The notes under the pieces: model-generated
The model's database searches: none
What the model was told of the DNA's origin: nothing
Seen by the model: the letters and a program-made list of their open reading frames with translations, nothing else
Position numbers and translations under genes: made by a program
Source of the DNA: a virus
Lineage: Duplodnaviria; Heunggongvirae; Uroviricota; Caudoviricetes
Virus record (IMG/VR): IMGVR_UViG_3300037743_000091
Direction: 5' to 3' (one strand)
Length of the DNA stretch: 64,000 bases
Shown here: positions 3,370-39,529 of the stretch, piece by piece
How the letters are laid out: each line of letters begins with the position of its first letter
Position numbering within the stretch: position 1 is the stretch's first letter

Positions 3370-3917
3370 CGTTCCTGGGTTCCCTTCATCTTGATCTTCT
3401 GGGCTTCGCCGATGGCCTGGTACACAGCGTCCAGGAGTTCCCGGAGTTCGTAGGTCTCCAGGACGTTTCGATCGGCAGTCTCCGTGCTCCTCATCGCCCG
3501 AATGGCCTCTTCTGGGGTGATCCCAAAGTCCTGGGGGTCCGGGACGAATTCCCGCACGTCTTCCTCACGGACCGCGAGAAGGCTTTCCGGCTGCTGTACG
3601 AAGGGAGCGAAGTAGAAGGTTCCGGTCAGCCCTTCGATCCACGTTCCCTTCACTTGACGCCCCTTAAGGAGGACACTTCCCCGCTCTCCAGGCTCACGTG
3701 CAGGGAGTTCCCGCGTACCCCCGACGAACTTCCAGCCTCCCGAGGTACAAGCAGTCGGGATGCCCCCGCCGGACATCGCGGGGAGTTCGAGGTGCGGTCC
3801 ACCGGAACGACAATCCCGGTGCTTTCCGGTCACCTGAACACCACTCTTGGTGAGAGTGATCGAGTCCCCATCCCGGACCTTCTTCGGGTCTGTAATGGTT
3901 ACCGTTCGTGCAGTCAT
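3366..3917 (-). CDS. Hypothetical protein (183 aa)
   Basis: ATG 3917 with GGAGGA RBS. ATGA overlap with the glycosyltransferase stop. Confidence 0.5.
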   Translation of the reverse strand: MTARTVTITDPKKVRDGDSITLTKSGVQVTGKHRDCRSGGPHLELPAMSGGGIPTACTSGGWKFVGGTRELPAREPGERGSVLLKGRQVKGTWIEGLTGTFYFAPFVQQPESLLAVREEDVREFVPDPQDFGITPEEAIRAMRSTETADRNVLETYELRELLDAVYQAIGEAQKIKMKGTQER

Positions 3918-4996
3918 GAGAGGTTCCTCCTTCGATTCACTGCGCGTTCCCACGCGTTGGCCCATTCTTCGGCTCGTGCCGAAATCGCCAAGGGACGGAC
4001 CTGGTTGATGAGTTCTGTGCGATAGTCGTTTCGGGCCTCACGCAAAGTACGCGTGACATCCACCTGCGCCTTCAAGTTCAGGTACCACTCCCGAGGATCG
4101 CTAGCCATACGCAATCCAGAAGTCTTACTCAACTCCCGGTTGGCGGGTGTCGGGGAGGCTACGACAAGAGCCCCCACGGCTCGGTACTCCAGGGCCTTTA
4201 GTGCGCTCTTGGCCTTGTTGAAGTGGTTGTCCACCAGGGGAACCATCGCTACGTCGGTGCCCTGGAGGGCTTCGTGGTACTCCTGGAGCGGTACCGGCCC
4301 GGACTCCGGTAGGAGTCGATCCTGTGGAATTCCCAGGGCCTCGGCAGCCCATTCATGATGTCCCACGATCTTGACGAACACGTCGGGATCTTCCGAGAGG
4401 ACGCGTTGAAGAGAGTCCCCTACCGCGCTCAGATCTCCGGCGTGACTCGCCTGAACACCGGACCAGCCCACGATCACGGCCCGTTCGTCCTCGGGACCAG
4501 TGTCAGGACTACCCGAAGCGAAAGCAGCGTCCGGGAGCCCGTTGACCAGCTTCTCGACGCGCCCGTGCTTCCCGTACCGCTGAGCCAGGGCATCGGTAGT
4601 AACGGTGACTAGATCAGCCTTCTTACACGCCTCGTCCAGGTGGGACCAGTGATGCGTCTGAGTCTTGTTCCAGTACACCCATGACCCGTTATCCCGTGGA
4701 ATAGCGTGCAGGGCGTCGTCCACGTCCACGACAACCGCAACGCCGTTCTTCTGGAATGCCCTTACCAACTCGACTTGAGTTGGAGAACCGACGCGCTGCA
4801 TCACAACGAGGTCCAATCCCTTCGGGTTGACTCCCCTGATCACAATGCCTCGGCTGCTCCTACCGATCTTGATAGATCCTGGCTTGTACTTCTCCACGGT
4901 CCACTCAGGACGAGCCTCTGCTACCACGACAGACGGCCAGATCAGACGAAAGTGACCGCAGGCCCCGACATCGTCGGGAAGAATCGCGACTCTCAC
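3914..4996 (-). CDS. Putative glycosyltransferase (GT-B-like)
   Basis: N-terminal MRVAILPDDVGACGHF Rossmann-like start typical of GT1/GT4. 360 aa. GTG start overlaps the upstream stop. Confidence 0.45.
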   Translation of the reverse strand: MRVAILPDDVGACGHFRLIWPSVVVAEARPEWTVEKYKPGSIKIGRSSRGIVIRGVNPKGLDLVVMQRVGSPTQVELVRAFQKNGVAVVVDVDDALHAIPRDNGSWVYWNKTQTHHWSHLDEACKKADLVTVTTDALAQRYGKHGRVEKLVNGLPDAAFASGSPDTGPEDERAVIVGWSGVQASHAGDLSAVGDSLQRVLSEDPDVFVKIVGHHEWAAEALGIPQDRLLPESGPVPLQEYHEALQGTDVAMVPLVDNHFNKAKSALKALEYRAVGALVVASPTPANRELSKTSGLRMASDPREWYLNLKAQVDVTRTLREARNDYRTELINQVRPLAISARAEEWANAWERAVNRRRNLS

Positions 4997-5226
4997 GAAC
5001 TCGCCACTCCCACCCAGATTCCGGCCAGGAGGAGAACGAGGCTAACGAAGAACAAAAAGAAACCCAGACTTCCTAGAGTTTCCGTGTTCTTGTTCATCCG
5101 GTTTCTTTCCTGGGCTGTCATTACCTCCCTGGCCCGAGGGTGAGGCCATCTCGCGGCTATTCCTGAAAAAGCACCGAAGATCAGAAATACCCCCGCCGTA
5201 GCCAACAGCCCTTCGTAAACTTCCAA
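4993..5226 (-). CDS. Small membrane protein (2 TM)
   Basis: TTG start 4 nt after AAGGGGG. Two hydrophobic helices. Coupled (GTGA) to the glycosyltransferase. Confidence 0.4.
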   Translation of the reverse strand: MEVYEGLLATAGVFLIFGAFSGIAARWPHPRAREVMTAQERNRMNKNTETLGSLGFFLFFVSLVLLLAGIWVGVASS

Positions 5227-5436
5227 ATCAAAACCCCCTTGAAGTCACGCTCATAAAGATGAGCACGAGTATGTAAGCGATGATCGCGACCACCTCCCAA
5301 CCCACCGGACCGTATCGGGACGGGCGGGAGGGGCGCCGTGTCACAGGAGACTCCAGTTAGTTCCTCGGGTGCCCCGATTCATGAAGCACCCGTAGCACTC
5401 GGCCAGTGTCACGCCTTCGACAGACCGGGCGCGCAG

Positions 5437-5513: not shown

Positions 5514-5882
5514 TCACGTCGGGGCTCCGACCATCTGGAAGGTCTCCAGGTATCTGTCCGCCATCTGACGAACCCGGGCCGCACGCCCGTAGCTCGGATC
5601 GGTGCGCATCATGAATGCCAGGGATTCGGCAGCCTGGCGCAGGTCGAGAAAGGCGCGCGCCTCACGAATGCGGTCGAAGAACTGTTCCGCGTGACGCTGG
5701 ACTCTCTCGGGTACGAGACCCCAGCCGGGCTGCCACACGGACCGGAAGAACCGGTGCGTCAGGATGTCGCGCTTACCGCGCTCCGGGTTGGTGATGTACA
5801 GAGGGATCGCAGCAGCCCCGATATGGGGCAACTCCGGCCCCAGGATCAGCGGGTTAGCGTCTGCCAAGTCGATAGGACTCAC
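5514..5882 (-). CDS. Hypothetical protein (122 aa)
   Basis: GTG start with GAAGGAG RBS. GTGA overlap with the upstream stop. Confidence 0.5.
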   Translation of the reverse strand: MSPIDLADANPLILGPELPHIGAAAIPLYITNPERGKRDILTHRFFRSVWQPGWGLVPERVQRHAEQFFDRIREARAFLDLRQAAESLAFMMRTDPSYGRAARVRQMADRYLETFQMVGAPT

Positions 5883-6085
5883 GGGGGTACTCCTTCGTTT
5901 GCGTAGTCTTCAATCTTCTGAATCTGATGGGTGAGAAACGTTCCGTTCTTGATAGCCGAAAGCATCGGCTTAAACAAGGAGAGCTGTCTGTTTGTCTCGG
6001 CCCTCTTCACGGCGTTTCGTTCTATGTGCGCCTCCCAGGCTGCTCGGTACATGGGTCCATCGTTCGGACCGGGGGGAGTGCTCAC
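5879..6085 (-). CDS. Hypothetical protein (68 aa)
   Basis: Coupled to the downstream gene. Codon usage consistent with its neighbours. Confidence 0.45.
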   Translation of the reverse strand: MSTPPGPNDGPMYRAAWEAHIERNAVKRAETNRQLSLFKPMLSAIKNGTFLTHQIQKIEDYANEGVPP

Positions 6086-6095
6086 TGTATGTTTC

Positions 6096-6434
6096 TCAGT
6101 CTTCCTCTGGTTCTGCGATCTTTGAATAAATGATGAGGTAAGTGAGAATTGCTGAGGTCAGCGTCTCACCTGACTTCTCCGCGTTCTTCTTCGCGGATTC
6201 CCAGATATCGTCAGGGACGTAAAAGCGGTACATGGTGCTCGTATCCGAGCCCGGCGGCGCCTTCATGATCCCGATGCCTGGTTGAGATACGCGCTTTCCT
6301 CGCCGCCCGTAGGCAAGGAGGAAAGTACGTAGGCTGTTAGGCAGCGTCTCTCCTCGCTTTGTCGCCTGACGCTTGGACGCTTCGAGGATTTCTTTCGGAA
6401 CTCGGATGCTCCGTCCTTCTCCGGTGTGGGCCAT
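6096..6434 (-). CDS. Tandem ribbon-helix-helix (Arc/MetJ/CopG-like) DNA-binding protein
   Basis: Two internal repeats (IRVPKEILEASKRQATKRGETLPNSLRTFLL and YRFYVPDDIWESAKKNAEKSGETLTSAILTYL). ATG 6434 with GGGAGGAG RBS. Confidence 0.5.
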   Translation of the reverse strand: MAHTGEGRSIRVPKEILEASKRQATKRGETLPNSLRTFLLAYGRRGKRVSQPGIGIMKAPPGSDTSTMYRFYVPDDIWESAKKNAEKSGETLTSAILTYLIIYSKIAEPEED

Positions 6435-8995: not shown

Positions 8996-9014
8996 GTGTC
9001 CTCCAGGTTCGTTG

Positions 9015-9056
9015 TGCTGACGTACGTAACATTACCATACCCGAAGAGAGCCGCAA
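9015..9056 (-). promoter_or_regulatory. Conserved promoter/operator element (minus orientation): -35 TTGCGG, 16 bp spacer, -10 TAATGT, then TACGTACGTCAGCACAAC
   Basis: Same element family. 8 nt upstream of the RBS of the SprT-like gene. Confidence 0.55.
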
Positions 9057-9176: not shown

Positions 9177-10829
9177 TCACTTCCCCGCCTGATCTCCCCG
9201 GATGTAGGCGAGCAAGGCGGTCTCGATCGACTCGCGCGTCAGGTGCGCCTTGCGAATCACCTCGTCTACCGATCCGGGGACCTCCACATTCCAGAACGTC
9301 ACGGATGGTCCTTTCTGGCCAAGACGGTTCAACCTGTCCCGCGCCTGCACCACGTCATCGCGTCTTTCGGACAATGAGGTAAATACAGCGTGCGAGGCAG
9401 ACACAAGTTCGTTCACGGCCAACGAGAGGGTTCGCATCTGGGCTACCAGGATGATTCGCTGCTTCTCGTCTGATCCGAACCGCTTACGTAGGGCCTCCCG
9501 TTCCTTCGGTGGCGTGTCACCCGTAATCGTCATGACCTCGCTTTTCGGCTCGTAATAACGAAGTCGATCAGCAAGTGCCGCGACTTCCTGACGGAAGTGC
9601 GCGAATACGACCACTCGTCGCTGCCCGGCAAGGGTGTCCATGACCGTACTCGTTGCGGCGTCCACCTTCGAGGACCCGATGATCCGTGTTACCCCGTTGT
9701 CATCGGGCAGGTAACCGCTCGTGATCTGGCGTAGGCGCATCATCTGGGCGAGGCGGTTCGGTACGGAAGCGAACGTTCCGTCAGACATGACTGTGGCAAG
9801 TTGCCCCTTCATATCGTCATAGGCACGCTGTTCGGCTGGTGACAGATGCACGGGAACCGTGATGTCCATAACCGGTGGTAGGTCGAGTGCGTCAGCCTTT
9901 CGGACCACGATGGAGTTGGCTTCCATGACCTTTTGCATTTCCCCGAGGTTCTTGTACGCGATGACCTGACGACCCTGCCATCCTCCGAATACCCCATACC
10001 GATCCTGGAATGCCCCGAAGGACATGGGTTTACGTCCGCCCGGAAGTCGGGAATCTGGGCTGTAGAACGCCTCAGGTTCGAGGAATCGCCACTGCGCCCA
10101 GACGTCCATAGGTGAGTGAGGCATAACTGTTCCAGTGAGGATCAGACGCCGGGGACACAGCCTGCCGATCCGCGCGGCGGCGCGGGATACGTTCGAGGAG
10201 GCGGACTTGAGCCGGTGGCTCTCGTCCACGATCACTAGGTCAGGCTGAAAAATCTTGATCGCATCAACCACCTTGTCTGTACTCGTGCGTGAGGCCGAGA
10301 CCTGCCTCTTGTGGCTCAGGGAGTCCAACGAGACCACTTCCAGCACTAGTCCGGGGGCTGACTGCCAAGGACCCTCGTAGAAGTCCCCCCAGTGAGCCCT
10401 CCTGGCGCGTGAAGTACTGGAGACCGCCTCACCCGTACGTGTGACCCCCGCCCATGAGATCGCTCGCCGTAGCCCCTCTGACGGGTCGCTGGACGATGCC
10501 CGACGTCCCGCTAGGGCTTCGGCGCGCTGGAGCACGGTTCCCCCCAGCGCTTCGGCCCACACCGCGACCCCGTGGGAGGCGAACCCGGAGGTCTGTCCCA
10601 CCCAGGAATCCAGGGCAACTACGGGTGCGAGGACAAGAACCCGGATCGATCGTTCCGCCTTGAGCGCCAAGAGCGAGGCGTAGTCGATAGCGACAGCCGT
10701 CTTCCCCGTCCCCGGTTCGAGGAGCAGGGCACAGCGCCCTCGTGTCTCGATGATCCTACGTAGAGCTTGCTTCTGGTGTTCGAACCGGACCGGCCCGCGC
10801 GGCCGGTACTGAATCCGCTTTTCTGTCAT
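9177..10829 (-). CDS. SNF2/DEAD-box-like helicase
   Basis: Walker A (PGTGKTAV) and DExH (VIVDESHRLK). 550 aa. Confidence 0.8.
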   Translation of the reverse strand: MTEKRIQYRPRGPVRFEHQKQALRRIIETRGRCALLLEPGTGKTAVAIDYASLLALKAERSIRVLVLAPVVALDSWVGQTSGFASHGVAVWAEALGGTVLQRAEALAGRRASSSDPSEGLRRAISWAGVTRTGEAVSSTSRARRAHWGDFYEGPWQSAPGLVLEVVSLDSLSHKRQVSASRTSTDKVVDAIKIFQPDLVIVDESHRLKSASSNVSRAAARIGRLCPRRLILTGTVMPHSPMDVWAQWRFLEPEAFYSPDSRLPGGRKPMSFGAFQDRYGVFGGWQGRQVIAYKNLGEMQKVMEANSIVVRKADALDLPPVMDITVPVHLSPAEQRAYDDMKGQLATVMSDGTFASVPNRLAQMMRLRQITSGYLPDDNGVTRIIGSSKVDAATSTVMDTLAGQRRVVVFAHFRQEVAALADRLRYYEPKSEVMTITGDTPPKEREALRKRFGSDEKQRIILVAQMRTLSLAVNELVSASHAVFTSLSERRDDVVQARDRLNRLGQKGPSVTFWNVEVPGSVDEVIRKAHLTRESIETALLAYIRGDQAGK

Positions 10830-10861
10830 GTTACATTCCTCCCATCACGCTATGTGTGACT

Positions 10862-10956
10862 TTTGTGAAACCCCAGGTCAGACCGGGTGCGCCGGATCGA
10901 TTATTTGTTTCCAACCACCCGGACCCCCTATAGGTACAGGTGGTTGGAAACAAATA
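10862..10956. repeat. Conserved hairpin element, copy 1: TTGTGAAACCCCAGG ... TTATTTGTTTCCAACCACC, loop containing CCTATAGG, then GGTGGTTGGAAACAAATAA
   Basis: Near-perfect 19 bp inverted repeat. The whole element recurs at 14830..14936, co-oriented with the transcript on each side of the divergent module. Confidence 0.5.
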
Positions 10957-10984
10957 AAAGAATCAGTGTCCGGTTCGACCCGGT

Positions 10985-13282
10985 TTATACCCATGGTGGG
11001 GCGTCGCTCCCGCCCGTGGAGTCCTCCCGGTTGAAGAGCGCCTCTAGAACATCCGATCCGGGTAGGGACTCCGGAGGTGTGTAGTCGGGGTCGAGGGAGA
11101 ACACGTGCGGAGCCCCTCGGGCCTTGAGCACTTCATCTCGTAGCTCTCCGGTGGCAAGCATCCGATCTCGGGCGTCCGTGATCTTGCGACGCCCGACTCC
11201 GGCCTGCCGTCCGGCTTCGCTCTGGATCGCAGCGGCAACCAACTCGTTCGTACGGAGAGGTTCGTCTACCTGGGCCAGAACTTCGCGTACGGCGTCCTCG
11301 GCTGCCGCTTCGGTTCCGGTGTCGATAACAATCGCCCCGTTCGCATCCGTACCGACTGAGGTGTTCACCGTGTCGGCCTTGTCCCCCAAGGTGAGCTTGT
11401 GGGTTAGCTCGTCGTGGATGACCTGGAACTTGTCCAGGTTCGCCGAACGTCCCCGAGCACGGATGTACCGGGCGGCTGTCGGATCGTCCGGGTCATCCGT
11501 GGATAGGTACACGATGTCGTCCGGCCAGTCCTCCAGTGCCGAGGAACCGCGAGCGCGGTTTCCGGACCAGCCGGAGTGTGCGGTCACGATGAGTTCTTTC
11601 ACTCCGGCATCCTCGCGAGACCAGCGAAGTAGTTCGTCCAGCCACTTTCGGGTCTCCCCGGCGGAGTTCTGGTCTTCCCCATCGAACGAGGCCCCGAACG
11701 TGTCCAGGATCAGCACTTCGCACGAACGCTCACGTAGCTTTTCAGCTAGCAACGCACGTCCTCGACGAGAGGCCAGTAGGTTCTTACGCCCGCGTAGGTT
11801 GAAAGGCTTGACTCGACGCATGAGTCCCACATCTCCATCGGAGATTCCAGCGAACCATTCGGCGATTTGTTTCGGCTCCATCTCGAAGTTCAGGAAACCC
11901 ACGGTAGCCTCCGCTTCGATGGGCTTTACGGCTCTGTCACCCATGAGCGGGGAGCCGTCCACGAGGCTTTTCGCTAGGTTGAGTACAAACGTACTCTTAC
12001 CCGTCTTGCGTTGCGCGGTAACCATTAGTACACCTCCTCCCGTCATGATTCCTTCGATACGTTGATCTACGTCTTGGGCATTTTCTAGGGCATCGGCGAA
12101 ATCCTCGAAATCATCGTCGATAATCGCTTTTAGGTCTTCATCGGATACGCCATCTCGATACCTTTCGCGAGCCTCTTCACGCACCCGCATTCGCAAGATT
12201 TCTTGCTCAATCAGGCGTTCAAAGGTCTTGCGGCTCCACCCTCCGACAACCTCGCTATCGGAATCGTTCTCTTCGGAGTCCTCTTCATCCGAGGATGACG
12301 GGGAGGATTCTTTTCCACCGTCCCCGATTTCAGGTGGTGGCAAATAATCGGATTGAGCATCGTCCCCGGTAGGGCGCTCGTACCCGTGATCCTTCTCGAT
12401 CTGGCGCACGAATTCCCGCGCCCGGTTCACGACGTCCTCCCCGACCATCTCGGCCAGCGTTGGCCAACCCTGAACCGGCTTACCGTTCTGGATCTTGCGG
12501 ACGGTGGACTCCACGACCTCGCTCGCGCGGTCCTCGCGGTCGTGGGTGAGGTCGCGAATCGCATCGATGATGGGTTCGACGTACGGGTGCCAGACCGAGG
12601 ACACGCGGCGCTTGTCACCGTATCCCTCGGCCAGGAGCGCTCCCGCCAGGGCTAGGTGTGCATCGTGGCGCGAGCCCTCTCCGGGCCACTCGATCACCAG
12701 CAGGGAGACCAAGGCCATGAGGCCGCATCGCGCGCGGAGTTGATCTCCGGGGATCACGCCAGGCGTGACGTCTTCCCCGCCCCACGGTTGCCCGTCGTCC
12801 CAGACGTATCGTTCCCCGTTCGGGTGAATAGACGCGGGGATGGCCGTTTGGTGCCCATCGCTACGAATCTCGACCAGGACGTCCTTGCCCTTACCGAACC
12901 GGTTCTTGTCCGGGTGCTTCCATACGATGCGCCCCGTGCCGAGGTCCGAGCATTGGTACCACCAGTGCGAGCGAGGAGACCCGACGCGCCCCGAGACGAC
13001 CTCGGTCGTTCCCGCGAGGAAGAAGCGCTCAGCTAGGAGGGTGGCCCGGGGCCAGTCGATATCCACGTCTACGAGGTGCCCTGAGCGTGCCCCGAGGATG
13101 ACCCCGACGTTGCCCGTGTGATCCTCGAAGGTCTCGCGCACCTCGGTCTCATCCGTGTAGGTGAGAGTTCCCCAGTCTCCGGCAGGCTTCTTGCTGCGCT
13201 CCTGGAGGGGTAGAGGCGTGTACCCACGGCGGTAGGCGGTTACGGCGTGCGTCAGGGCTTGGGTTCCGATAGGCTCGCTCAC
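10985..13282 (-). CDS. Bifunctional primase-polymerase (PrimPol N-terminus) fused to a P-loop helicase/ATPase
   Basis: N-terminal Prim-Pol signature (LPLQERSKKPAGDW ... VGVILGARSGHLVDVDID). Central Walker A (RKTGKSTFVLNLA). 765 aa. Confidence 0.8.
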   Translation of the reverse strand: MSEPIGTQALTHAVTAYRRGYTPLPLQERSKKPAGDWGTLTYTDETEVRETFEDHTGNVGVILGARSGHLVDVDIDWPRATLLAERFFLAGTTEVVSGRVGSPRSHWWYQCSDLGTGRIVWKHPDKNRFGKGKDVLVEIRSDGHQTAIPASIHPNGERYVWDDGQPWGGEDVTPGVIPGDQLRARCGLMALVSLLVIEWPGEGSRHDAHLALAGALLAEGYGDKRRVSSVWHPYVEPIIDAIRDLTHDREDRASEVVESTVRKIQNGKPVQGWPTLAEMVGEDVVNRAREFVRQIEKDHGYERPTGDDAQSDYLPPPEIGDGGKESSPSSSDEEDSEENDSDSEVVGGWSRKTFERLIEQEILRMRVREEARERYRDGVSDEDLKAIIDDDFEDFADALENAQDVDQRIEGIMTGGGVLMVTAQRKTGKSTFVLNLAKSLVDGSPLMGDRAVKPIEAEATVGFLNFEMEPKQIAEWFAGISDGDVGLMRRVKPFNLRGRKNLLASRRGRALLAEKLRERSCEVLILDTFGASFDGEDQNSAGETRKWLDELLRWSREDAGVKELIVTAHSGWSGNRARGSSALEDWPDDIVYLSTDDPDDPTAARYIRARGRSANLDKFQVIHDELTHKLTLGDKADTVNTSVGTDANGAIVIDTGTEAAAEDAVREVLAQVDEPLRTNELVAAAIQSEAGRQAGVGRRKITDARDRMLATGELRDEVLKARGAPHVFSLDPDYTPPESLPGSDVLEALFNREDSTGGSDAPPWV

Positions 13283-13419
13283 GCGTCGATGACTCCTTGT
13301 GTGTTGTCGCTAGTCGAGAGGTCTTCGTCAAAAACTCTCTCGACGGGTTCCATCAGGTTGGTACCTGACGAAGGGCCGTTCGGTTCGTCCGGACGGCCCT
13401 TCGTTGTGTCCTGAGTCAT
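13279..13419 (-). CDS. Small acidic protein (46 aa), first gene of the minus-strand operon
   Basis: ATG 13419 with GGGGAGAGAG RBS. GTGA overlap with the primase start. Confidence 0.4.
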   Translation of the reverse strand: MTQDTTKGRPDEPNGPSSGTNLMEPVERVFDEDLSTSDNTQGVIDA

Positions 13420-13439
13420 GCTCTCTCCCCTCGCTCCGT

Positions 13440-13500
13440 ACCGGGTCGATCCGAGCAGGTACATGATACATTGGTACACATCACACCAGGTCACCAGGAC
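13440..13500. promoter_or_regulatory. AT-richer divergent promoter region between the minus and plus operons
   Basis: Local GC drop (GTACATGATACATTGGTACACATCACACC). TG-TATCAT extended -10-like box on the minus strand. Confidence 0.3.
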
Positions 13501-13586
13501 TCCGGGAGGGTCCGGCACCGTGGCGTGACGCAACGCTACCGCACAGGTAGGACACCGTGCGCGGCGACCTCAACCCGGATCGATTT

Positions 13587-13622
13587 GATTTCGAACCAGT
13601 GCCTCGTAGGTGGTTCGAAATC
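13587..13622 (+). repeat. TTTCGAACCA hairpin, copy 1: GATTTCGAACCA, 12 nt loop containing CGTAGG, then TGGTTCGAAATC
   Basis: Perfect 12 bp inverted repeat in the leader of the Cas4-like gene. Related copies at 15223..15276 and 39454..39480. Confidence 0.45.
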
Positions 13623-13641
13623 AGCGATGGAAGGAACTCCT

Positions 13642-14802
13642 ATGGATAAGCAAGCTGCCCCGGCGACCCCCGACGAGGTGCTGTGGATCTCGCCGTCGCG
13701 CCTGAACACGTGGCGCAAGTGCCCCAAGGCGTACGAGTACAGCTACCTACGCGGCCTGACCGTCGCGCAGGCGGGGGCGCAGGTGGACCGCGAGTTGGGT
13801 TCGTGGTGGCACGCGGTGCGTGGTGCCGACTCGATCGCACGAGCACAGCGTCAGGACGATGAGCCCTTGTACGTCCCCCCGACACTCTCCACAGGTGACC
13901 TCGGCCCAGAACTACCCGTGACTCTCCAGACGAACGCCACGGCCGTCCTGGCAGCGTCTGAGAGCTTCTGGCGCACCCTGAGCACGGACGACCGGGACGC
14001 CTGGGTTCAGCGCACCGGGCGGGGGCTTCCGGAGCACCTGGCGGAGATGGACGAGAGATGGCGTGACGTGTGGGACGAAGCTTCGACCGGCGAGAAACTG
14101 CTCGCGGTCGAGTACCCGTTCGCTGTCCGGATCGGGACCACCGGGTACGGCCTGCGTGGTCGCGTGGACGAGATCTACTACGACGCGGAGCGGGATCTGA
14201 CCGTGGTGCGCGATCACAAGTCGAATCGGGACATTCCGCCCAGTGAGTCACTGGAGGACATGCTGGACGCACAGTTGCACCTGTACGCGTGGGCCGTGAG
14301 TCAAGCACTCGTGAAGGTGGACGCCGTGGCCTTCGACCGGGCTCGTTCGAAGCCCGCCGCGACCCCTACCCTCACCAAGTCCGGAAGCCTGTCGAAGTCG
14401 GTCACGGACTACGACGCGCTGGCCTACCTCGCGTTCACGGACGCCCCGGTCCCCTACCCGGGGCTCAAGAAGGACGGGTCCGGCGCGGGTGAGTACACGC
14501 GTGATGAAGACGTACTCGCGAAGCTGCGTACCCCCTCGGAGCGGGACAAGTGGAACCGGCGCACGCTCGATCCCGTGAACCGGCGCATGGTGCGCGGGCA
14601 CATGCGAGAGCTGTTGGCCTCAGCCGTGGACATGCGTCAGGCGCAGGAGCGCTACGCGCGCTCGACGGATGAGGGGATAGGGAACGCTCGCAACCTGTCG
14701 CGGTACTCGTGCAAGGGCTGTGACTTCCTGAGCCTGTGCCTCGACGAGCTGCGTACGGGGCTGATCCTGGAGCCGGACGAGTACGGGCTGCGGGTTCGGT
14801 AG
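13642..14802 (+). CDS. Cas4/RecB-family PD-(D/E)XK exonuclease with Fe-S Cys cluster
   Basis: N-terminal Cys (RKCPKAY), C-terminal C-x2-C-x5-C (YSCKGCDFLSLC) and D ... EIYYD ... DHK nuclease motifs. ATG with GGAAGGAA RBS. Confidence 0.75.
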   Translation: MDKQAAPATPDEVLWISPSRLNTWRKCPKAYEYSYLRGLTVAQAGAQVDRELGSWWHAVRGADSIARAQRQDDEPLYVPPTLSTGDLGPELPVTLQTNATAVLAASESFWRTLSTDDRDAWVQRTGRGLPEHLAEMDERWRDVWDEASTGEKLLAVEYPFAVRIGTTGYGLRGRVDEIYYDAERDLTVVRDHKSNRDIPPSESLEDMLDAQLHLYAWAVSQALVKVDAVAFDRARSKPAATPTLTKSGSLSKSVTDYDALAYLAFTDAPVPYPGLKKDGSGAGEYTRDEDVLAKLRTPSERDKWNRRTLDPVNRRMVRGHMRELLASAVDMRQAQERYARSTDEGIGNARNLSRYSCKGCDFLSLCLDELRTGLILEPDEYGLRVR

Positions 14803-14829
14803 ATCCTGTGAAAATCGGACATATCTCCT

Positions 14830-14936
14830 CCTGATTTTTTATTTCATTCCACCTCCCTCTACCTATAGGGAATCGGGGGTGGTTGGAAACAAATAATCGA
14901 GAATCAGGACCCCGTCTGACCTGGGGTTTCACACAA
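14830..14936. repeat. Conserved hairpin element, copy 2: TTATTTCATTCCACCTCCC, CCTATAGGG loop, GGTGGTTGGAAACAAATAA, then GTCTGACCTGGGGTTTCACA
   Basis: Matches copy 1 in the same orientation relative to transcription, immediately after the Cas4-like gene. Confidence 0.5.
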
Positions 14937-14967
14937 TCTACAAAATCTGTCATGGGAGGAACGTAAC

Positions 14968-15219
14968 ATGCCACTCCGCGTGCGGATCGACTACCCGGGG
15001 AGCACCCGGTATCCGTGGCGTCCTTGGCGGCTCGGCTGGGACCGGTACGGGAGTCGCGCCCTGTTCCTCGGGCTGCCCCGCTTCCGGTGCCTCGCGATCG
15101 TGTACCGCGAGTGCAGGGAGCCGTGTTGTCCATGCGAGTACCTGGAGCCCTACGGCTGCTCGGACTGCTACAACACGGGACACCTACATCTGTACGAACC
15201 GAAGCGGCCCCGGATTTGA
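14968..15219 (+). CDS. Cys-rich small protein (83 aa)
   Basis: ATG with GGGAGGAA RBS. 9 Cys including CCPCEY and CSDCYNTGH. Confidence 0.45.
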   Translation: MPLRVRIDYPGSTRYPWRPWRLGWDRYGSRALFLGLPRFRCLAIVYRECREPCCPCEYLEPYGCSDCYNTGHLHLYEPKRPRI

Positions 15220-15222
15220 TTG

Positions 15223-15276
15223 ATTATTTCGAACCAGTTAGGATGCGCCGTAGGCGCTCCACTGGTTCGAAATAAT
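15223..15276 (+). repeat. TTTCGAACCA hairpin, copy 2: ATTATTTCGAACCAGT, 23 nt loop containing CGTAGG, then ACTGGTTCGAAATAAT
   Basis: Perfect 16 bp inverted repeat directly after the stop of 14968..15219. Confidence 0.45.
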
Positions 15277-15387
15277 AATCAGCGAACCGGAGACCAACTC
15301 ATCTAGCTAGCTCCCCGGTACTCCGCTATACGGGTACCGGGTTAGTTATTCCCCCCGTTTGATATCAGATGGTCTCGGATCTTGTGG

Positions 15388-15409
15388 TAAGGTTACGAAC
15401 GTCAACAAC
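15388..15409 (+). promoter_or_regulatory. Degenerate copy of the promoter core (TAAGGTTACGAACGTCAACAAC)
   Basis: Two substitutions relative to TAATGTTACGAACGTCAGCAC. Upstream of the Sak4-like gene. Confidence 0.3.
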
Positions 15410-15446
15410 ACAGGTCATGGCGACGCCAGACCGGGGAGAGGCAACT

Positions 15447-16283
15447 ATGCAGATTGCTGGGCTTGACATGTTCGACGTCGGGGACGTCGGTGCGGACTAC
15501 GGGAGGTTCCTCCTCCACGGTCCTCAGGGATCGGGCAAGAGCTTCCTGGCCGCGACGATGGCCGAGGTCGGCCCCACGCTGTACGTGGACATGAGGGGTG
15601 AGCGCGGGACGCGGTCGTTCATCGGTACCCCGTACGCGAAGAACATCAAGGTGATCCGACCCAAGTCGATCCAACAGCTTGACTCGCTGTTCTACGCGCT
15701 GGACAAGGGCGATCAGGGGTTCAAGGCGGTGGTTCTGGACTCCCTCACGGCGGTGCAGAAGCTCACCATGCGCTTCCTGCTCGGGCACTCGGAGACGGCG
15801 GTTCGTGAGATCAGCCAAGGGGTTGCCCCGGCCGATCAACGTACCTGGGGCCAGGCGCTCGACATCATGAGCGATGTCCCCACGTTCTGGTACAGCCTCG
15901 CCGACGCGGAGCGTCCCAACCCCATGCACGTCATCCTCACAGCGCAGACCAAGGTCACGGAGGACGAGGTCAATCAGGTCACTTCCCGTGTTCCGGATGT
16001 TCAGCGCGGAGCGCAGTCGATTACGCTAGCCACTCCGGATTACATCCTGTACACAGATACAGAACTCGACTACGACAACCTGAACGATGAGGGTGACCCG
16101 GCTACCCGCCACATCGCCCGATTCGGAAACGATCGGGATTACCGAATCAAGGCACGAGTTCCGGCGCACCTCCACGGGAAGATTCCCCCGGTGCTCGGAC
16201 GCAAGGGACCGATGTCCCTGGTGACCCTGGGGCGCGCCCTCGGCCTGGGTGGTATCCCCGCCAAGCCTGCCGCCAAGAAGTAA
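15447..16283 (+). CDS. RecA-like AAA ATPase (Sak4/AAA_24-like recombination protein)
   Basis: Walker A (HGPQGSGKSF) and Walker B (VVLDSLT). Followed by a DUF669-like gene as in Sak4 modules. ATG with GGGGAGAGG RBS. Confidence 0.7.
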   Translation: MQIAGLDMFDVGDVGADYGRFLLHGPQGSGKSFLAATMAEVGPTLYVDMRGERGTRSFIGTPYAKNIKVIRPKSIQQLDSLFYALDKGDQGFKAVVLDSLTAVQKLTMRFLLGHSETAVREISQGVAPADQRTWGQALDIMSDVPTFWYSLADAERPNPMHVILTAQTKVTEDEVNQVTSRVPDVQRGAQSITLATPDYILYTDTELDYDNLNDEGDPATRHIARFGNDRDYRIKARVPAHLHGKIPPVLGRKGPMSLVTLGRALGLGGIPAKPAAKK

Positions 16284-39453: not shown

Positions 39454-39480
39454 TTATTTCTAACCGCTGGTTTGAAATAA
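39454..39480 (+). repeat. TTTCGAACCA-family hairpin, copy 3 (TTATTTCTAACC-GCT-GGTTTGAAATAA)
   Basis: Imperfect inverted repeat related to 13587 and 15223 copies. AT-rich surroundings. Confidence 0.3.
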
Positions 39481-39529
39481 TTAACGCGGAATATTCCTTT
39501 ACCAACACTTGAAAGAGGTTCAGACCACG

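Follow-up and report, generated by a model that had tools for sequence, protein, structure and literature searches.

We found that two inverted, hairpin-forming elements in a tailed-phage genome (Caudoviricetes) belong to a family of palindromes that accompanies the gene for a primase-helicase. Four members of this family (P1 to P4) occur in the window, that is, in the whole 64,000-nt stretch of DNA analyzed. We consider it an evenly balanced possibility that P1 to P4 are origin or initiator-binding palindromes, with P3 as a duplicated second site. The comparative evidence points to a site that would function at the level of DNA and be linked to the primase-helicase gene, an option absent from the first-pass annotation.

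Two inverted repeat units in a divergent module

The relevant features are as follows.

9177-10829, minus strand: SNF2 helicase gene, next after the left element
10824-10966, minus strand: left repeat unit, consisting of palindrome, block B, Shine-Dalgarno sequence (10836-10843) and SNF2 ATG (10827-10829)
10864-10883, minus strand: left copy of block B, GTCTGACCTGGGGTTTCACA, the same sequence as in the right element
10901-10957: P1, near-perfect palindrome, arms TTATTTGTTTCCAACCACC / GGTGGTTGGAAACAAATAA, centre CCTATAGG
10985-13282, minus strand: gene for a 765-aa protein with PrimPol (AEP) domain, AAA_25 helicase (Pfam PF09250, PF13481) and predicted C-terminal winged helix, the proposed cognate initiator
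11093-11314, minus strand: coding region of the predicted winged-helix domain, residues ~657-730 (structure prediction)
13455-13485: putative divergent promoter core with overlapping -10 boxes, TGATACATT (plus strand) and CAATGT (minus strand), flanked by GGTACA repeats
13585-13623: P2, short palindrome TTGATTTCGAACCA...TGGTTCGAAATCA, centre CGTAGG, just 5′ of the PDDEXK ribosome-binding site (RBS) and ATG (13643)
13643-14802, plus strand: PD-(D/E)XK (PDDEXK; Cas4/RecB-like) exonuclease gene, first of the rightward arm, called as 386 aa
14831-14973, plus strand: right repeat unit, consisting of palindrome, block B, Shine-Dalgarno sequence (14954-14961) and ATG of the 83-aa ORF (14968-14970)
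14839-14896: P3, imperfect palindrome copy, centre CCTATAGG, flanked by the PDDEXK nuclease gene and the 83-aa ORF
14914-14933, plus strand: right copy of block B
14968-15219, plus strand: 83-aa ORF, next after the right element
15216-15283: P4, 30-pair palindrome, half-site TTATTTCGAACCAGT / ACTGGTTCGAAATAA, centre CCGTAGG, between the 83-aa ORF and a Sak4-like gene

An inverted-repeat search confirmed that the two elements are inverted relative to each other. As had been proposed, the divergent transcription unit has one element behind the first large gene of either arm. The four sequence blocks described as shared are present in both elements, as judged by sequence counts against chance. 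For example, GGTGGTTGGAAACAAATAA occurs at 10939-10957 (+), 10901-10919 (-) and 14878-14896 (+), with a chance expectation of 0.01, while GTCTGACCTGGGGTTTCACA occurs at 10864-10883 (-) and 14914-14933 (+), with an expectation of 0.02. The sequence CCTATAGG is found only twice in the 64-kb window, once at each hairpin tip (P1 and P3).

The match between the elements is real, but its earlier size of about 100 bp was too small. By BLAST, 10824-10966 and 14831-14973 form an inverted repeat of ~143 nt (144 columns, 78% identity), with no third full-length copy in the 64-kb window. Because the repeat spans the Shine-Dalgarno sequence GGGAGGAA and the next gene's ATG on both sides, each element is an entire intergenic spacer. 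Block B is similar to the -35 region (CCCCTGGGTTGCTAA) of a promoter that this phage has in 13 copies, and it is kept in the relatives L007 and L008.

P1 starts 28 nt beyond the PrimPol-helicase stop codon, and the inverted-repeat search gave it 25-nt arms that are 92% complementary, with 7 nt between them. The stem of P3 can be extended by pairing CTGATT (14832-14837) with AATCAG (14902-14907). P2 and P4 are shorter nearby palindromes with the half-site of P1 and P3. This half-site, ATTTCSAACCA, occurs nine times in the window, where 1.1 occurrences are expected, and seven of the nine belong to the four palindromes, in a 4.4-kb stretch around the proposed initiator gene. The P1 to P4 family is restricted to the replication module. 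The palindrome arms are A/T-rich within a 61% G+C genome and their centre is TATA, although the window has more A/T-rich sites elsewhere. There is a GC-skew minimum at ~12-13 kb, but it corresponds to the switch in transcription direction and so is not independent evidence for an origin.

The C-terminal 75 residues of the PrimPol-helicase are predicted to form a winged helix (pLDDT > 90 across helix-helix-helix-helix-strand-strand). Its closest structural neighbors are DNA-binding winged helices, namely those of MarR, Fur, histone H1 and forkhead proteins. The E-values of these matches are weak (1e-2 to 6e-4), which counts against the origin reading. A distant homologue gives weak MarR/GntR hints.

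Conservation in full-length relatives

The elements are conserved in related phages, so the similarity is not limited to this phage. A palindrome of 50-65 nt occurs 2-30 nt after the primase-helicase stop codon in every full-length relative (L007-L014 and L142-L144). This position holds in the eleven full-length relatives with contigs that extend beyond the stop codon, of which L142 breaks off inside the palindrome. Their primase-helicases are 75% (L007), 73% (L008), 55% (L142) and ~41% (L009-L014, L143 and L144) identical to that of the window. A second palindrome lies upstream, beside the PDDEXK start, in all but two of them. One exception, L011, has no visible second copy because its contig is too short for that region, and in the other, L142, the contig ends leave just the inner half of each palindrome visible. 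P2 occupies the position where relatives hold their full-length second palindrome.

The arm sequences are wholly different between lineages (TTATTTGTTTCCAACCACC, CTCTTCTCATCAC and GTTCTTCGTTCATCAC). Within a genome, the two copies are similar to each other; the arms are lineage-specific and co-vary, and the centre is usually (Y)CTATAG(R). This positional conservation despite sequence turnover supports the origin reading. The element AATGTATCATGT of the divergent promoter core is also kept in all relatives; the assignment of 13455-13485 as a divergent promoter derives from its agreement with the consensus.

The relatives also bear on the earlier suggestion that the elements are the ends of a module acquired or inverted as a unit. 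Such a mobile or invertible cassette would flip by recombination, or would have arrived as one piece, like a MITE or an invertible element. The copies are indeed inverted, 143 nt long and 78% identical. Moreover, P3 is located where relatives have three extra small genes, which implies that a rearrangement happened there. The L142 contig breaks precisely at both palindrome centres, but assemblers break contigs at inverted repeats. Against a cassette, the genes have an identical order and orientation in all ten of the related contigs that include flanking genes. What lies between the repeats depends on the lineage: the primase only, or the primase and the nuclease. We saw no target-site duplication and no further copies elsewhere in the window, and gene annotation and Pfam identified no recombinase or transposase in the module. 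We therefore regard a mobile cassette as highly improbable.

DNA symmetry and RNA structure

A further explanation is that the elements are RNA stem-loops between the genes of two early operons. They could be terminators or attenuators that lack U-tracts and work with antitermination, or RNase III processing or mRNA-stability sites, and block B and the RBS would then be a restart promoter and leader for the next gene. We consider this explanation rather unlikely, though it has several points in its favor. All of P1 to P4 lie in spacers directly 5′ of an RBS, with flanks co-oriented with transcription; such a location also suits operators, and it counts against the origin reading. Both proposed hairpins exist, but they are not equal. 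The left one (P1) is near-perfect, with ~27 pairs and -38.7 kcal/mol, and its 142-nt transcript forms a much more stable fold than shuffled sequence does (z = -4.5). By contrast, the right one (P3) has 18 pairs, is imperfect (-19.6 kcal/mol) and is a poor hairpin (z = -1.6). Stems of at least 20 bp generally suit RNase III; P1 and P4 fit this ~20-bp type, and P2 and P3 are marginal.

No U-tract follows the palindrome in any copy, whether in the window or in relatives, and the 3′ flank is A-rich or purine-rich. A scan with a terminator consensus did not flag P1 or P3. However, other presumed terminators of this phage, G+C-rich hairpins that precede the 13-copy promoter in cassettes elsewhere in the window, also lack U-tracts. 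A sequence like the promoter of this phage family comes directly after the post-primase palindrome in the ~41% group. This layout is that of the window's hairpin-promoter cassettes, and thus allows a reading as a terminator-promoter cassette. In terms of placement, P1 and P3 come after genes as expected of terminators, but P2 and the relatives' second copy are in the PDDEXK 5′ leader, not after the PDDEXK gene. A search of positions 10500-15600 against Rfam 15 matched no family apart from a chance hit to mir-341 at 13352-13420 (E = 0.28; 22 bits versus a 90-bit threshold).

Other observations also argue against RNA. Sense and antisense strands fold equally well (24 versus 16 G-U pairs). Across 16 aligned palindromes, paired cells make up 89.8% of the alignment, compared to 42-61% when the partner is slid. 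Compensatory changes affect 11 of 16 pairs, and none of the 13 pairs of the main helix varies on one side only. The changes are nearly all from one Watson-Crick pair to another, with G-U intermediates nearly absent among 47 compensatory cells. This maintenance of symmetry through double changes supports the origin reading. In addition, the self-complementary TATA centre is common to lineages whose stems share nothing, which is not expected of an RNA loop. A possible fifth palindrome (P5), with a spacer of 2 nt, is unable to fold. In sum, the proposed roles as terminator, attenuator, antitermination or processing site received no specific support.

P5 is situated far away from the replication genes, in an intergenic region of 290 nt. 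This location would be consistent with yet another explanation, in which the palindromes are operators for a separate phage-encoded regulator that binds the half-site TTATTTC(N)AACCA and switches the replication module on or off. In line with this idea, P1 to P4 and the possible P5 together give 8-10 half-sites in the window, as inverted pairs upstream of four or five genes. Moreover, the second palindrome of L007 and L008 lies within a 99-nt symmetric array with GGTACA/TGTACC repeats, which also flank the divergent promoter. Nonetheless, the PrimPol-helicase gene is the only constant neighbor of the palindrome across very different contexts, and gene annotation and Pfam identified no separate regulator gene in the module. 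The half-site spacing is also not constant, ranging from 2 to ~22 nt; this variability is unusual for a simple dimeric binder and counts against the origin reading as well. Overall, we find a separate regulator quite unlikely.

Iterons and palindromes in distant homologues

The distant homologues come from metagenomic loci and from elements integrated in many Actinomycetota, and are 35-46% identical over the helicase half. The PrimPol and AAA_25 combination was confirmed for two of the three distant metagenomic loci examined. At the 3′ end of the initiator gene, distant homologues have arrays of 8-11-nt direct iterons in 3-6 copies. These arrays partly overlap the gene's 3′ end, an arrangement that argues against RNA-level function, and run into a palindrome of the same iteron centred on YCTATAGR or CTTATAGG. 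A palindrome is present at this location in roughly half of the distant loci. With a strict count of TATA-centred palindromes, 35 of 119 usable loci have one at the gene end. This corresponds to 35 in 81.9 kb around the gene end, compared with 2 in the other 688.7 kb of these loci, a ~150-fold enrichment at the primase-helicase gene 3′ end. In the cultured relative Microbacterium phage Rasputia, the primase/polymerase/helicase gene is followed directly by a non-coding region of 420 nt, which is rich in repeats and has a long hairpin. Direct iteron arrays are absent from the window lineage and the 41% lineage, which have palindromes only, and this absence counts against the origin reading.

A candidate origin and its proposed initiator

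Under the origin reading, P1 and P3 would be double-stranded DNA palindromes rather than primarily RNA signals, and would be cognate binding sites, of origin type, for the phage's own PrimPol-helicase. Besides the conserved position and the double changes, this reading draws on the restriction of CCTATAGG to the two hairpin tips, the clustering of the half-site, the predicted winged helix, the iteron arrays and TATA-centred palindromes of distant homologues, the Rasputia region and the precedents described below. The C-terminal winged helix of the 765-aa protein might recognize the palindrome arms, and the helicase might assemble there. Melting, or extrusion as a cruciform, could then affect the A/T-rich bases of the arms together with the conserved TATA centre, after which the PrimPol domain could prime.

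P1, with its conserved position directly 3′ of the initiator gene, would be the ancestral site. The second copy would be a lineage-variable auxiliary site, which relatives have beside the PDDEXK start, within the region of the divergent promoter, and which in this phage was presumably reduced to P2. P3 would be a fresh full-length copy, made when the whole junction of P1 and SNF2 (palindrome, block B and RBS) was duplicated into the junction between PDDEXK and the 83-aa ORF. The second site may cooperate with P1, by analogy to crr and ori in phage P4, and may also serve as an operator for neighboring genes.

A broader version of this proposal is doubtful as a whole. It holds that the TATA-centred palindrome is a widely conserved, previously unrecognized mark of the origins used by PrimPol-AAA_25-winged-helix initiators in phages and integrative elements of Actinomycetota. 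The phage lineages would have a two-site system, in which two inverted palindromes around the initiator gene are brought together or extruded as cruciforms. PrimPol would start symmetrically at the conserved CTATAG centre, giving the same primer outward on both strands, and the palindromes would double as gates for early operons.

Comparison with known systems

The SaPI Rep and SCCmec Cch2 proteins use a C-terminal domain to bind iteron origins, which lie directly downstream of the genes encoding them (PMC7581432, citing Ubeda et al. 2007). They resemble the module in the window in having an initiator helicase fused or adjacent to a primase, a C-terminal dsDNA-binding domain (here predicted) and a short-repeat origin (here a candidate) directly downstream of the gene with lineage-specific specificity. 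Their helicases are of the SF3/D5 type or DUF927, unlike the AAA_25 helicase here, and their origins consist of direct iterons flanking an A/T-rich stretch. By contrast, the window lineage has one long TATA-centred palindrome, a second copy 3.9 kb away and no direct iteron array.

At the 3′ end of its gene, RepAM of pMEA300, a DUF3631 protein (PMC3218068), binds identical 8-bp repeats capable of forming a hairpin; regulation of the downstream gene by this site has also been suggested, a further likeness (PMC2440964). Both cases involve an actinomycete mobile element with stable-hairpin repeats at the initiator gene's 3′ end. However, RepAM is not homologous to the initiator in the window, as DUF3631 matched none of the proteins examined. 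RepAM elements are also proposed to use rolling-circle replication with a nick site in the loop, whereas the proposed initiator here is a primase-helicase.

The alpha protein of phage P4 is a primase-helicase-winged-helix polypeptide, and crr cooperates with ori. The module here is similar in its single polypeptide, whose winged helix is predicted, and in its two cis sites several kb apart, with the same motif in both orientations and one site next to the initiator gene. P4 alpha differs in having another primase, an SF3 helicase and octamer iterons rather than long palindromes.

In phage T7, five related RNase III sites lie between early genes. These sites and lambda nutL/nutR resemble the elements studied here as paired or multiple hairpins after or between the first early genes, co-oriented with transcription. 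They are strand-specific RNA signals, without perfect DNA symmetry or a link to an initiator gene, whereas the symmetry here is of the Watson-Crick kind, shows no strand preference and is linked to the primase-helicase gene.

The paired elements and the palindrome family

A replication and recombination module surrounds both hairpin elements in this phage DNA, which has a G+C content of about 61%. In addition to the features listed here, its leftward arm contains a SprT-like gene and a DNA polymerase A gene, and its rightward arm encodes a Sak4-like ATPase and a DUF669 SSB-like protein. P1 and P3 are the cores of the two elements.

Genes and palindromes of the replication module
9177-10829, minus strand: SNF2 helicase
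10901-10957: P1, left element, an almost perfect palindrome
10985-13282, minus strand: PrimPol and AAA_25 helicase (PrimPol-helicase), 765 aa
13328-13471, minus strand (leftward): leader ORF, 46 aa, whose stop codon overlaps the primase start
13585-13623: P2, directly 5′ of the ribosome-binding site of the PD-(D/E)XK gene
13643-14802, rightward: PD-(D/E)XK (Cas4/RecB-like) exonuclease
14839-14896: P3, right element, with an internal loop and a bulge
14968-15219, rightward: Cys-rich ORF, 83 aa
15216-15283: P4, 5′ of the Sak4-like gene

The first-pass annotation had described two matching elements of about 100 bp that share four blocks and lie in inverted orientation. Their pairing and orientation are confirmed, and all four blocks were found. 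The match is real, but it is longer than was proposed, running from 10824 to 10966 and from 14831 to 14973 with 78% agreement over 144 columns. A 19-mer and a 20-mer are each exactly common to both elements (chance expectation 0.01-0.02), and the sequence CCTATAGG is limited to the two hairpin tips in the 64 kb searched. On both sides the repeat takes in the Shine-Dalgarno sequence and ATG of the downstream gene, so each element is an entire intergenic spacer.

The half-site ATTTCSAACCA, allowing at most one mismatch, occurs nine times where 1.1 occurrences are expected, and seven of the nine lie inside the four palindromes, which span 4.4 kb. All four centres are of a TAGG type, with TATAGG in P1 and P3 and CGTAGG in P2 and P4. 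Direct iterons beyond the palindromes were not found in the window or in the lineages whose PrimPol-helicase is about 41% identical (the 41% group). The flanks of P3 and P4 are among the top twelve 30-mers for A/T-richness, although they are not unique in this ranking.

Another palindromic sequence, CCCGGTACTCCGCTATACGGGTACCGGG followed by TTAGTTATTC, lies at 15314-15341 between P4 and the Sak4-like start codon. It is terminator-like by scan, and includes the GGTAC motif of the repeats in the divergent promoter. At 39455-39486 we noticed the arrangement TTATTTCTAACC-GC-TGGTTTGAAATAA, with the half-site as in P2 and P4. Its half-sites are just 2 nt apart, so no hairpin can fold there. The site, located in an A/T-rich intergenic region of 290 nt and followed by a small ORF about 45 nt downstream, may be a fifth member of the family, distant from the replication module.

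Conservation in related elements

No similar sequences were found in INPHARED by megablast or distant blastn, and a protein-pattern scan of IMG/VR gave no match. Four IMG/VR matches to the 19-mer were dismissed as chance, being in contigs of 32-35% G+C. A protein database search gave homologues of the PrimPol-helicase with 75%, 73%, 55% and about 41% identity, and we fetched and compared their contigs. Two near-identical contigs (L005 and L006, one SNP each) were uninformative.

The elements are conserved in these relatives. Every homologue contig has a palindrome of 50-65 nt located 2-30 nt past the PrimPol-helicase stop codon; the L142 contig (55% identity) stops at its centre. A second copy lies 250-390 nt upstream of the PrimPol-helicase gene, adjoining the start codon of the PD-(D/E)XK gene, in all but two contigs: L011 is too short for that region, and L142 shows half of the copy. 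The arms are wholly different between lineages (TTATTTGTTTCCAACCACC in the window group, CTCTTCTCATCAC in L142 and GTTCTTCGTTCATCAC in the 41% group), whereas both copies within one genome resemble each other and the centre stays (C)CTATAGG, CTTATAGG or TTAC/TTAG.

The contig L142 is a 2546-nt sequence from Logan SRR26081735. Its ends coincide exactly with the midpoints of the palindromes on either side of the gene (TATAGAGAGTGTGTGGTGATGAG... and ...CTCATCACTGCACACCCTTATATAA), which is probably an assembly break at an inverted repeat. In this lineage, too, the PrimPol-helicase gene is bracketed by palindromes.

Beside the PD-(D/E)XK start, the window lineage has a site that has shrunk to P2, and a full-length P3 is found after that gene instead. 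The relatives L007 (75% identity; positions 3712-4567) and L008 (73%; 4500-5313) have three extra small genes of 92, 84 and 91-105 aa between the PD-(D/E)XK gene and a Cys-rich 80-aa gene. These genes are absent from the window phage, where the P3 element occupies the corresponding junction (14803-14967), and their fourth small gene is homologous to the 83-aa ORF. P1 is more similar to P3 (78%) than to its own L008 orthologue (69%), which argues that P3 arose by duplication of, or gene conversion from, the junction of P1 and the SNF2 gene.

The suggestion that the module was inverted or acquired as a unit, as a mobile or invertible cassette flanked by the repeats, is poorly supported. All relatives show the same single orientation, the module has no recombinase, and the repeats have no copies elsewhere in the window.

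Promoter-like sequences

The sequence TAATGTTACGTACGTCAGCAC occurs thirteen times in the window, where none would be expected by chance. Two copies are on the minus strand (1980-2000 and 9014-9034) and the others are on the plus strand (17749, 21653, 23266, 24016, 27731, 37472, 40068, 41984, 61916, 62431 and 63571), always in gene direction. About 17 nt upstream of the copies is (CCCC)TGGGTTGCTAA or a G+C-rich hairpin, and GGAGG with a start codon follows after 25-35 nt. The motif is also present in the distant relatives L012 and L014, and looks like a sigma-70-type promoter of the phage family with a conserved initial transcribed region. None of its copies lies between 9034 and 17749, the region of the replication module.

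A 20-nt stretch, block B (GTCTGACCTGGGGTTTCACA; 10864-10883, minus strand, and 14914-14933, plus strand), is identical in both elements though the neighbouring sequence diverges, and is kept after P1 in L007 and L008. It resembles the −35 box and upstream part (CCCCTGGGTTGCTAA) of the repeated promoter and is possibly an internal promoter. However, there is no acceptable −10 box 16-18 nt after it, and a consensus scan detected no sigma-70 promoter within the elements. We also considered CCTATAGGG as a T7-like or N4-like promoter and rejected it, because the window has no ORF of sufficient length to encode a single-subunit RNA polymerase and the same centre is present in small integrated elements.

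At the divergent promoter core (13455-13485), the candidate −10 boxes TGATACATT (plus strand) and CAATGT (minus strand) overlap on opposite strands, with GGTACA/TGTACC repeats on both sides. Within the core, AATGTATCATGT persists in every relative, even at 41% primase identity. The 46-aa leader ORF on the minus strand contains a G+C-rich hairpin, GAAGGGCCG...CGGCCCTTC, at 13368-13404. Both hairpin and ORF are kept in L007, L008, L009, L010, L142, L143 and L144, i.e., in every full-length relative for which the region was read, and could serve the primase as a leader-peptide or attenuator device. The sole Rfam match, a meaningless one to mir-341, falls in this hairpin region.

Symmetry of the palindromes

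In an alignment of 16 palindromes, 89.8% of cells are paired, compared with 42-61% when the partners are slid, and compensatory double changes occur in 11 of the 16 pairs. Together, these observations indicate that the symmetry is selected. Changes in the stem are almost exclusively from one Watson-Crick pair to another, and no pair of the main helix exhibits one-sided variation.

The first-pass annotation is right on pairing, orientation and conservation, but the RNA mechanisms that it favoured, such as terminators, gain no backing from the evidence. In favour of an RNA-level role, all palindromes are located just 5′ of a ribosome-binding site, and in the 41% group the post-primase palindrome adjoins a promoter-like motif. 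Moreover, other hairpins of the phage, those ahead of the repeated sigma-70-like promoter, likewise lack U-tracts. On the other hand, no copy in any relative has a U-tract after the palindrome, no palindrome matches an Rfam family, and G-U versus A-C pairs reveal no strand bias, since sense and antisense strands fold equally (24 versus 16 G-U pairs). The data fit the prediction for a double-stranded DNA palindrome, with no positive sign of RNA-specific constraint. An RNA-level function in termination, attenuation or RNase III cleavage is nevertheless a reasonable alternative, at perhaps a quarter of the weight.

Distant homologues and the link to the proposed initiator

Scans of metagenomes and genomes revealed more than 100 loci with more distant relatives of the helicase half. 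A genome scan using the PrimPol alignment found no relatives, and a rescan using the distant ORFs did. Pfam confirmed PrimPol and AAA_25 in two of three ORFs tested. Many loci are integrated in genomes of Actinomycetota, with hosts including Arthrobacter, Knoellia, Rhodococcus, Mycobacterium, Microbacterium, Demequina and Actinomyces.

At the 3′ end of the helicase gene, these loci have arrays of three to six direct iterons of 8-11 nt (e.g., AACCCCGTCC, CACCTCTCC, ACCCGTTC and GAGTCGTTCC) that lead into a palindrome built of the same iteron, with YCTATAGR or CTTATAGG at its centre. Lineage-specific iterons with a YCTATAGR-centred palindrome occur in L015, L016, L020, L024, L042, L055, L082, L085 and L090-L140. 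GC3 drops across the iteron region, and in some loci the ORF ends just before the iterons, directly after a conserved winged-helix-like C-terminus. Under a fixed counting rule, we counted 35 TATA-centred palindromes in 81.9 kb around the gene end versus two in 688.7 kb of other locus sequence, an enrichment of about 150-fold. The inner part of the 41%-group palindrome, CACCCCCTCCC-TATA-GGGGAGGGTG, is almost identical in form to the palindromes of the distant loci, giving a continuum from iteron palindromes to P1. In some G-rich arms (e.g., those of L024 and L055), there are runs that would be compatible with G-quadruplexes.

One cultured relative is Microbacterium phage Rasputia (MT639646.1; L145). 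Directly after its gene 92 (DNA primase/polymerase/helicase) is a 420-nt unannotated non-coding gap (5805-6225) that contains about six GAATTCTC(A/G)G repeats, which occur in both orientations, together with a hairpin at 6017-6113, whose 44-nt arms are T/C-rich (5′) and A/G-rich (3′). We regard this gap as a candidate origin.

What accompanies the palindrome throughout, across unrelated gene neighbourhoods, is the PrimPol-helicase gene. The C-terminal 75 residues of the window protein are predicted with high confidence to form a winged helix, which is matched structurally, at weak E-values, by MarR, Fur, histone H1 and forkhead domains; no NCBIfam family exists for the initiator. The constant partner gene, the lineage-specific arms, this candidate DNA-binding domain and the textbook iterons of distant members make up the pattern of an origin adjoining its initiator. 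The likeliest identity of the palindrome is therefore an origin-type site of the PrimPol-helicase initiator: P1 would be the origin or the place where the initiator binds, and P3, like P2 and P4, would be a further site. The predicted winged-helix domain would bind the palindrome, the TATA centre could melt or extrude as a cruciform and be the place of priming, and the sites might cooperate. That the palindromes are instead operators of a separate regulator seems to us a less likely possibility than the RNA-level role. They may serve both replication and transcription.

Comparison with known systems

To our knowledge, few actinobacteriophages and few actinomycete integrative elements, very few in all, have a replication origin that was established by experiment. 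If the proposed origin function is correct, origins and their cognate initiators could be found by a simple signature in a large group of mobile elements, most of them uncultured. In this signature, which lies at the 3′ end of a PrimPol-AAA_25 gene and often consists of iterons, a C-rich arm precedes a (Y)CTATAG(R) centre and a G-rich arm follows it. It would also provide a testable example of co-evolution between initiator and origin, and parts for actinomycete vectors. We consider this lead to be of moderate interest, because it extends to many uncultured elements of Actinomycetota.

The RepAM protein of pMEA300 binds hairpin-forming repeats that lie in the 3′ end of the gene encoding it (PMC2440964), and belongs to DUF3631 (PMC3218068). 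The origin logic is the same, but RepAM is an unrelated protein: homology was rejected because no protein tested here matches DUF3631. For SaPI Rep and SCCmec Cch2, origins adjacent to the initiator have been demonstrated (PMC7581432).

Phage P4 has a two-site layout, with ori and crr, and the layout that we propose for the window is comparable. If our reading is correct, the paired arrangement in the phages would allow a P4-like two-site mechanism, or a dual use in replication and transcription, to be tested directly.
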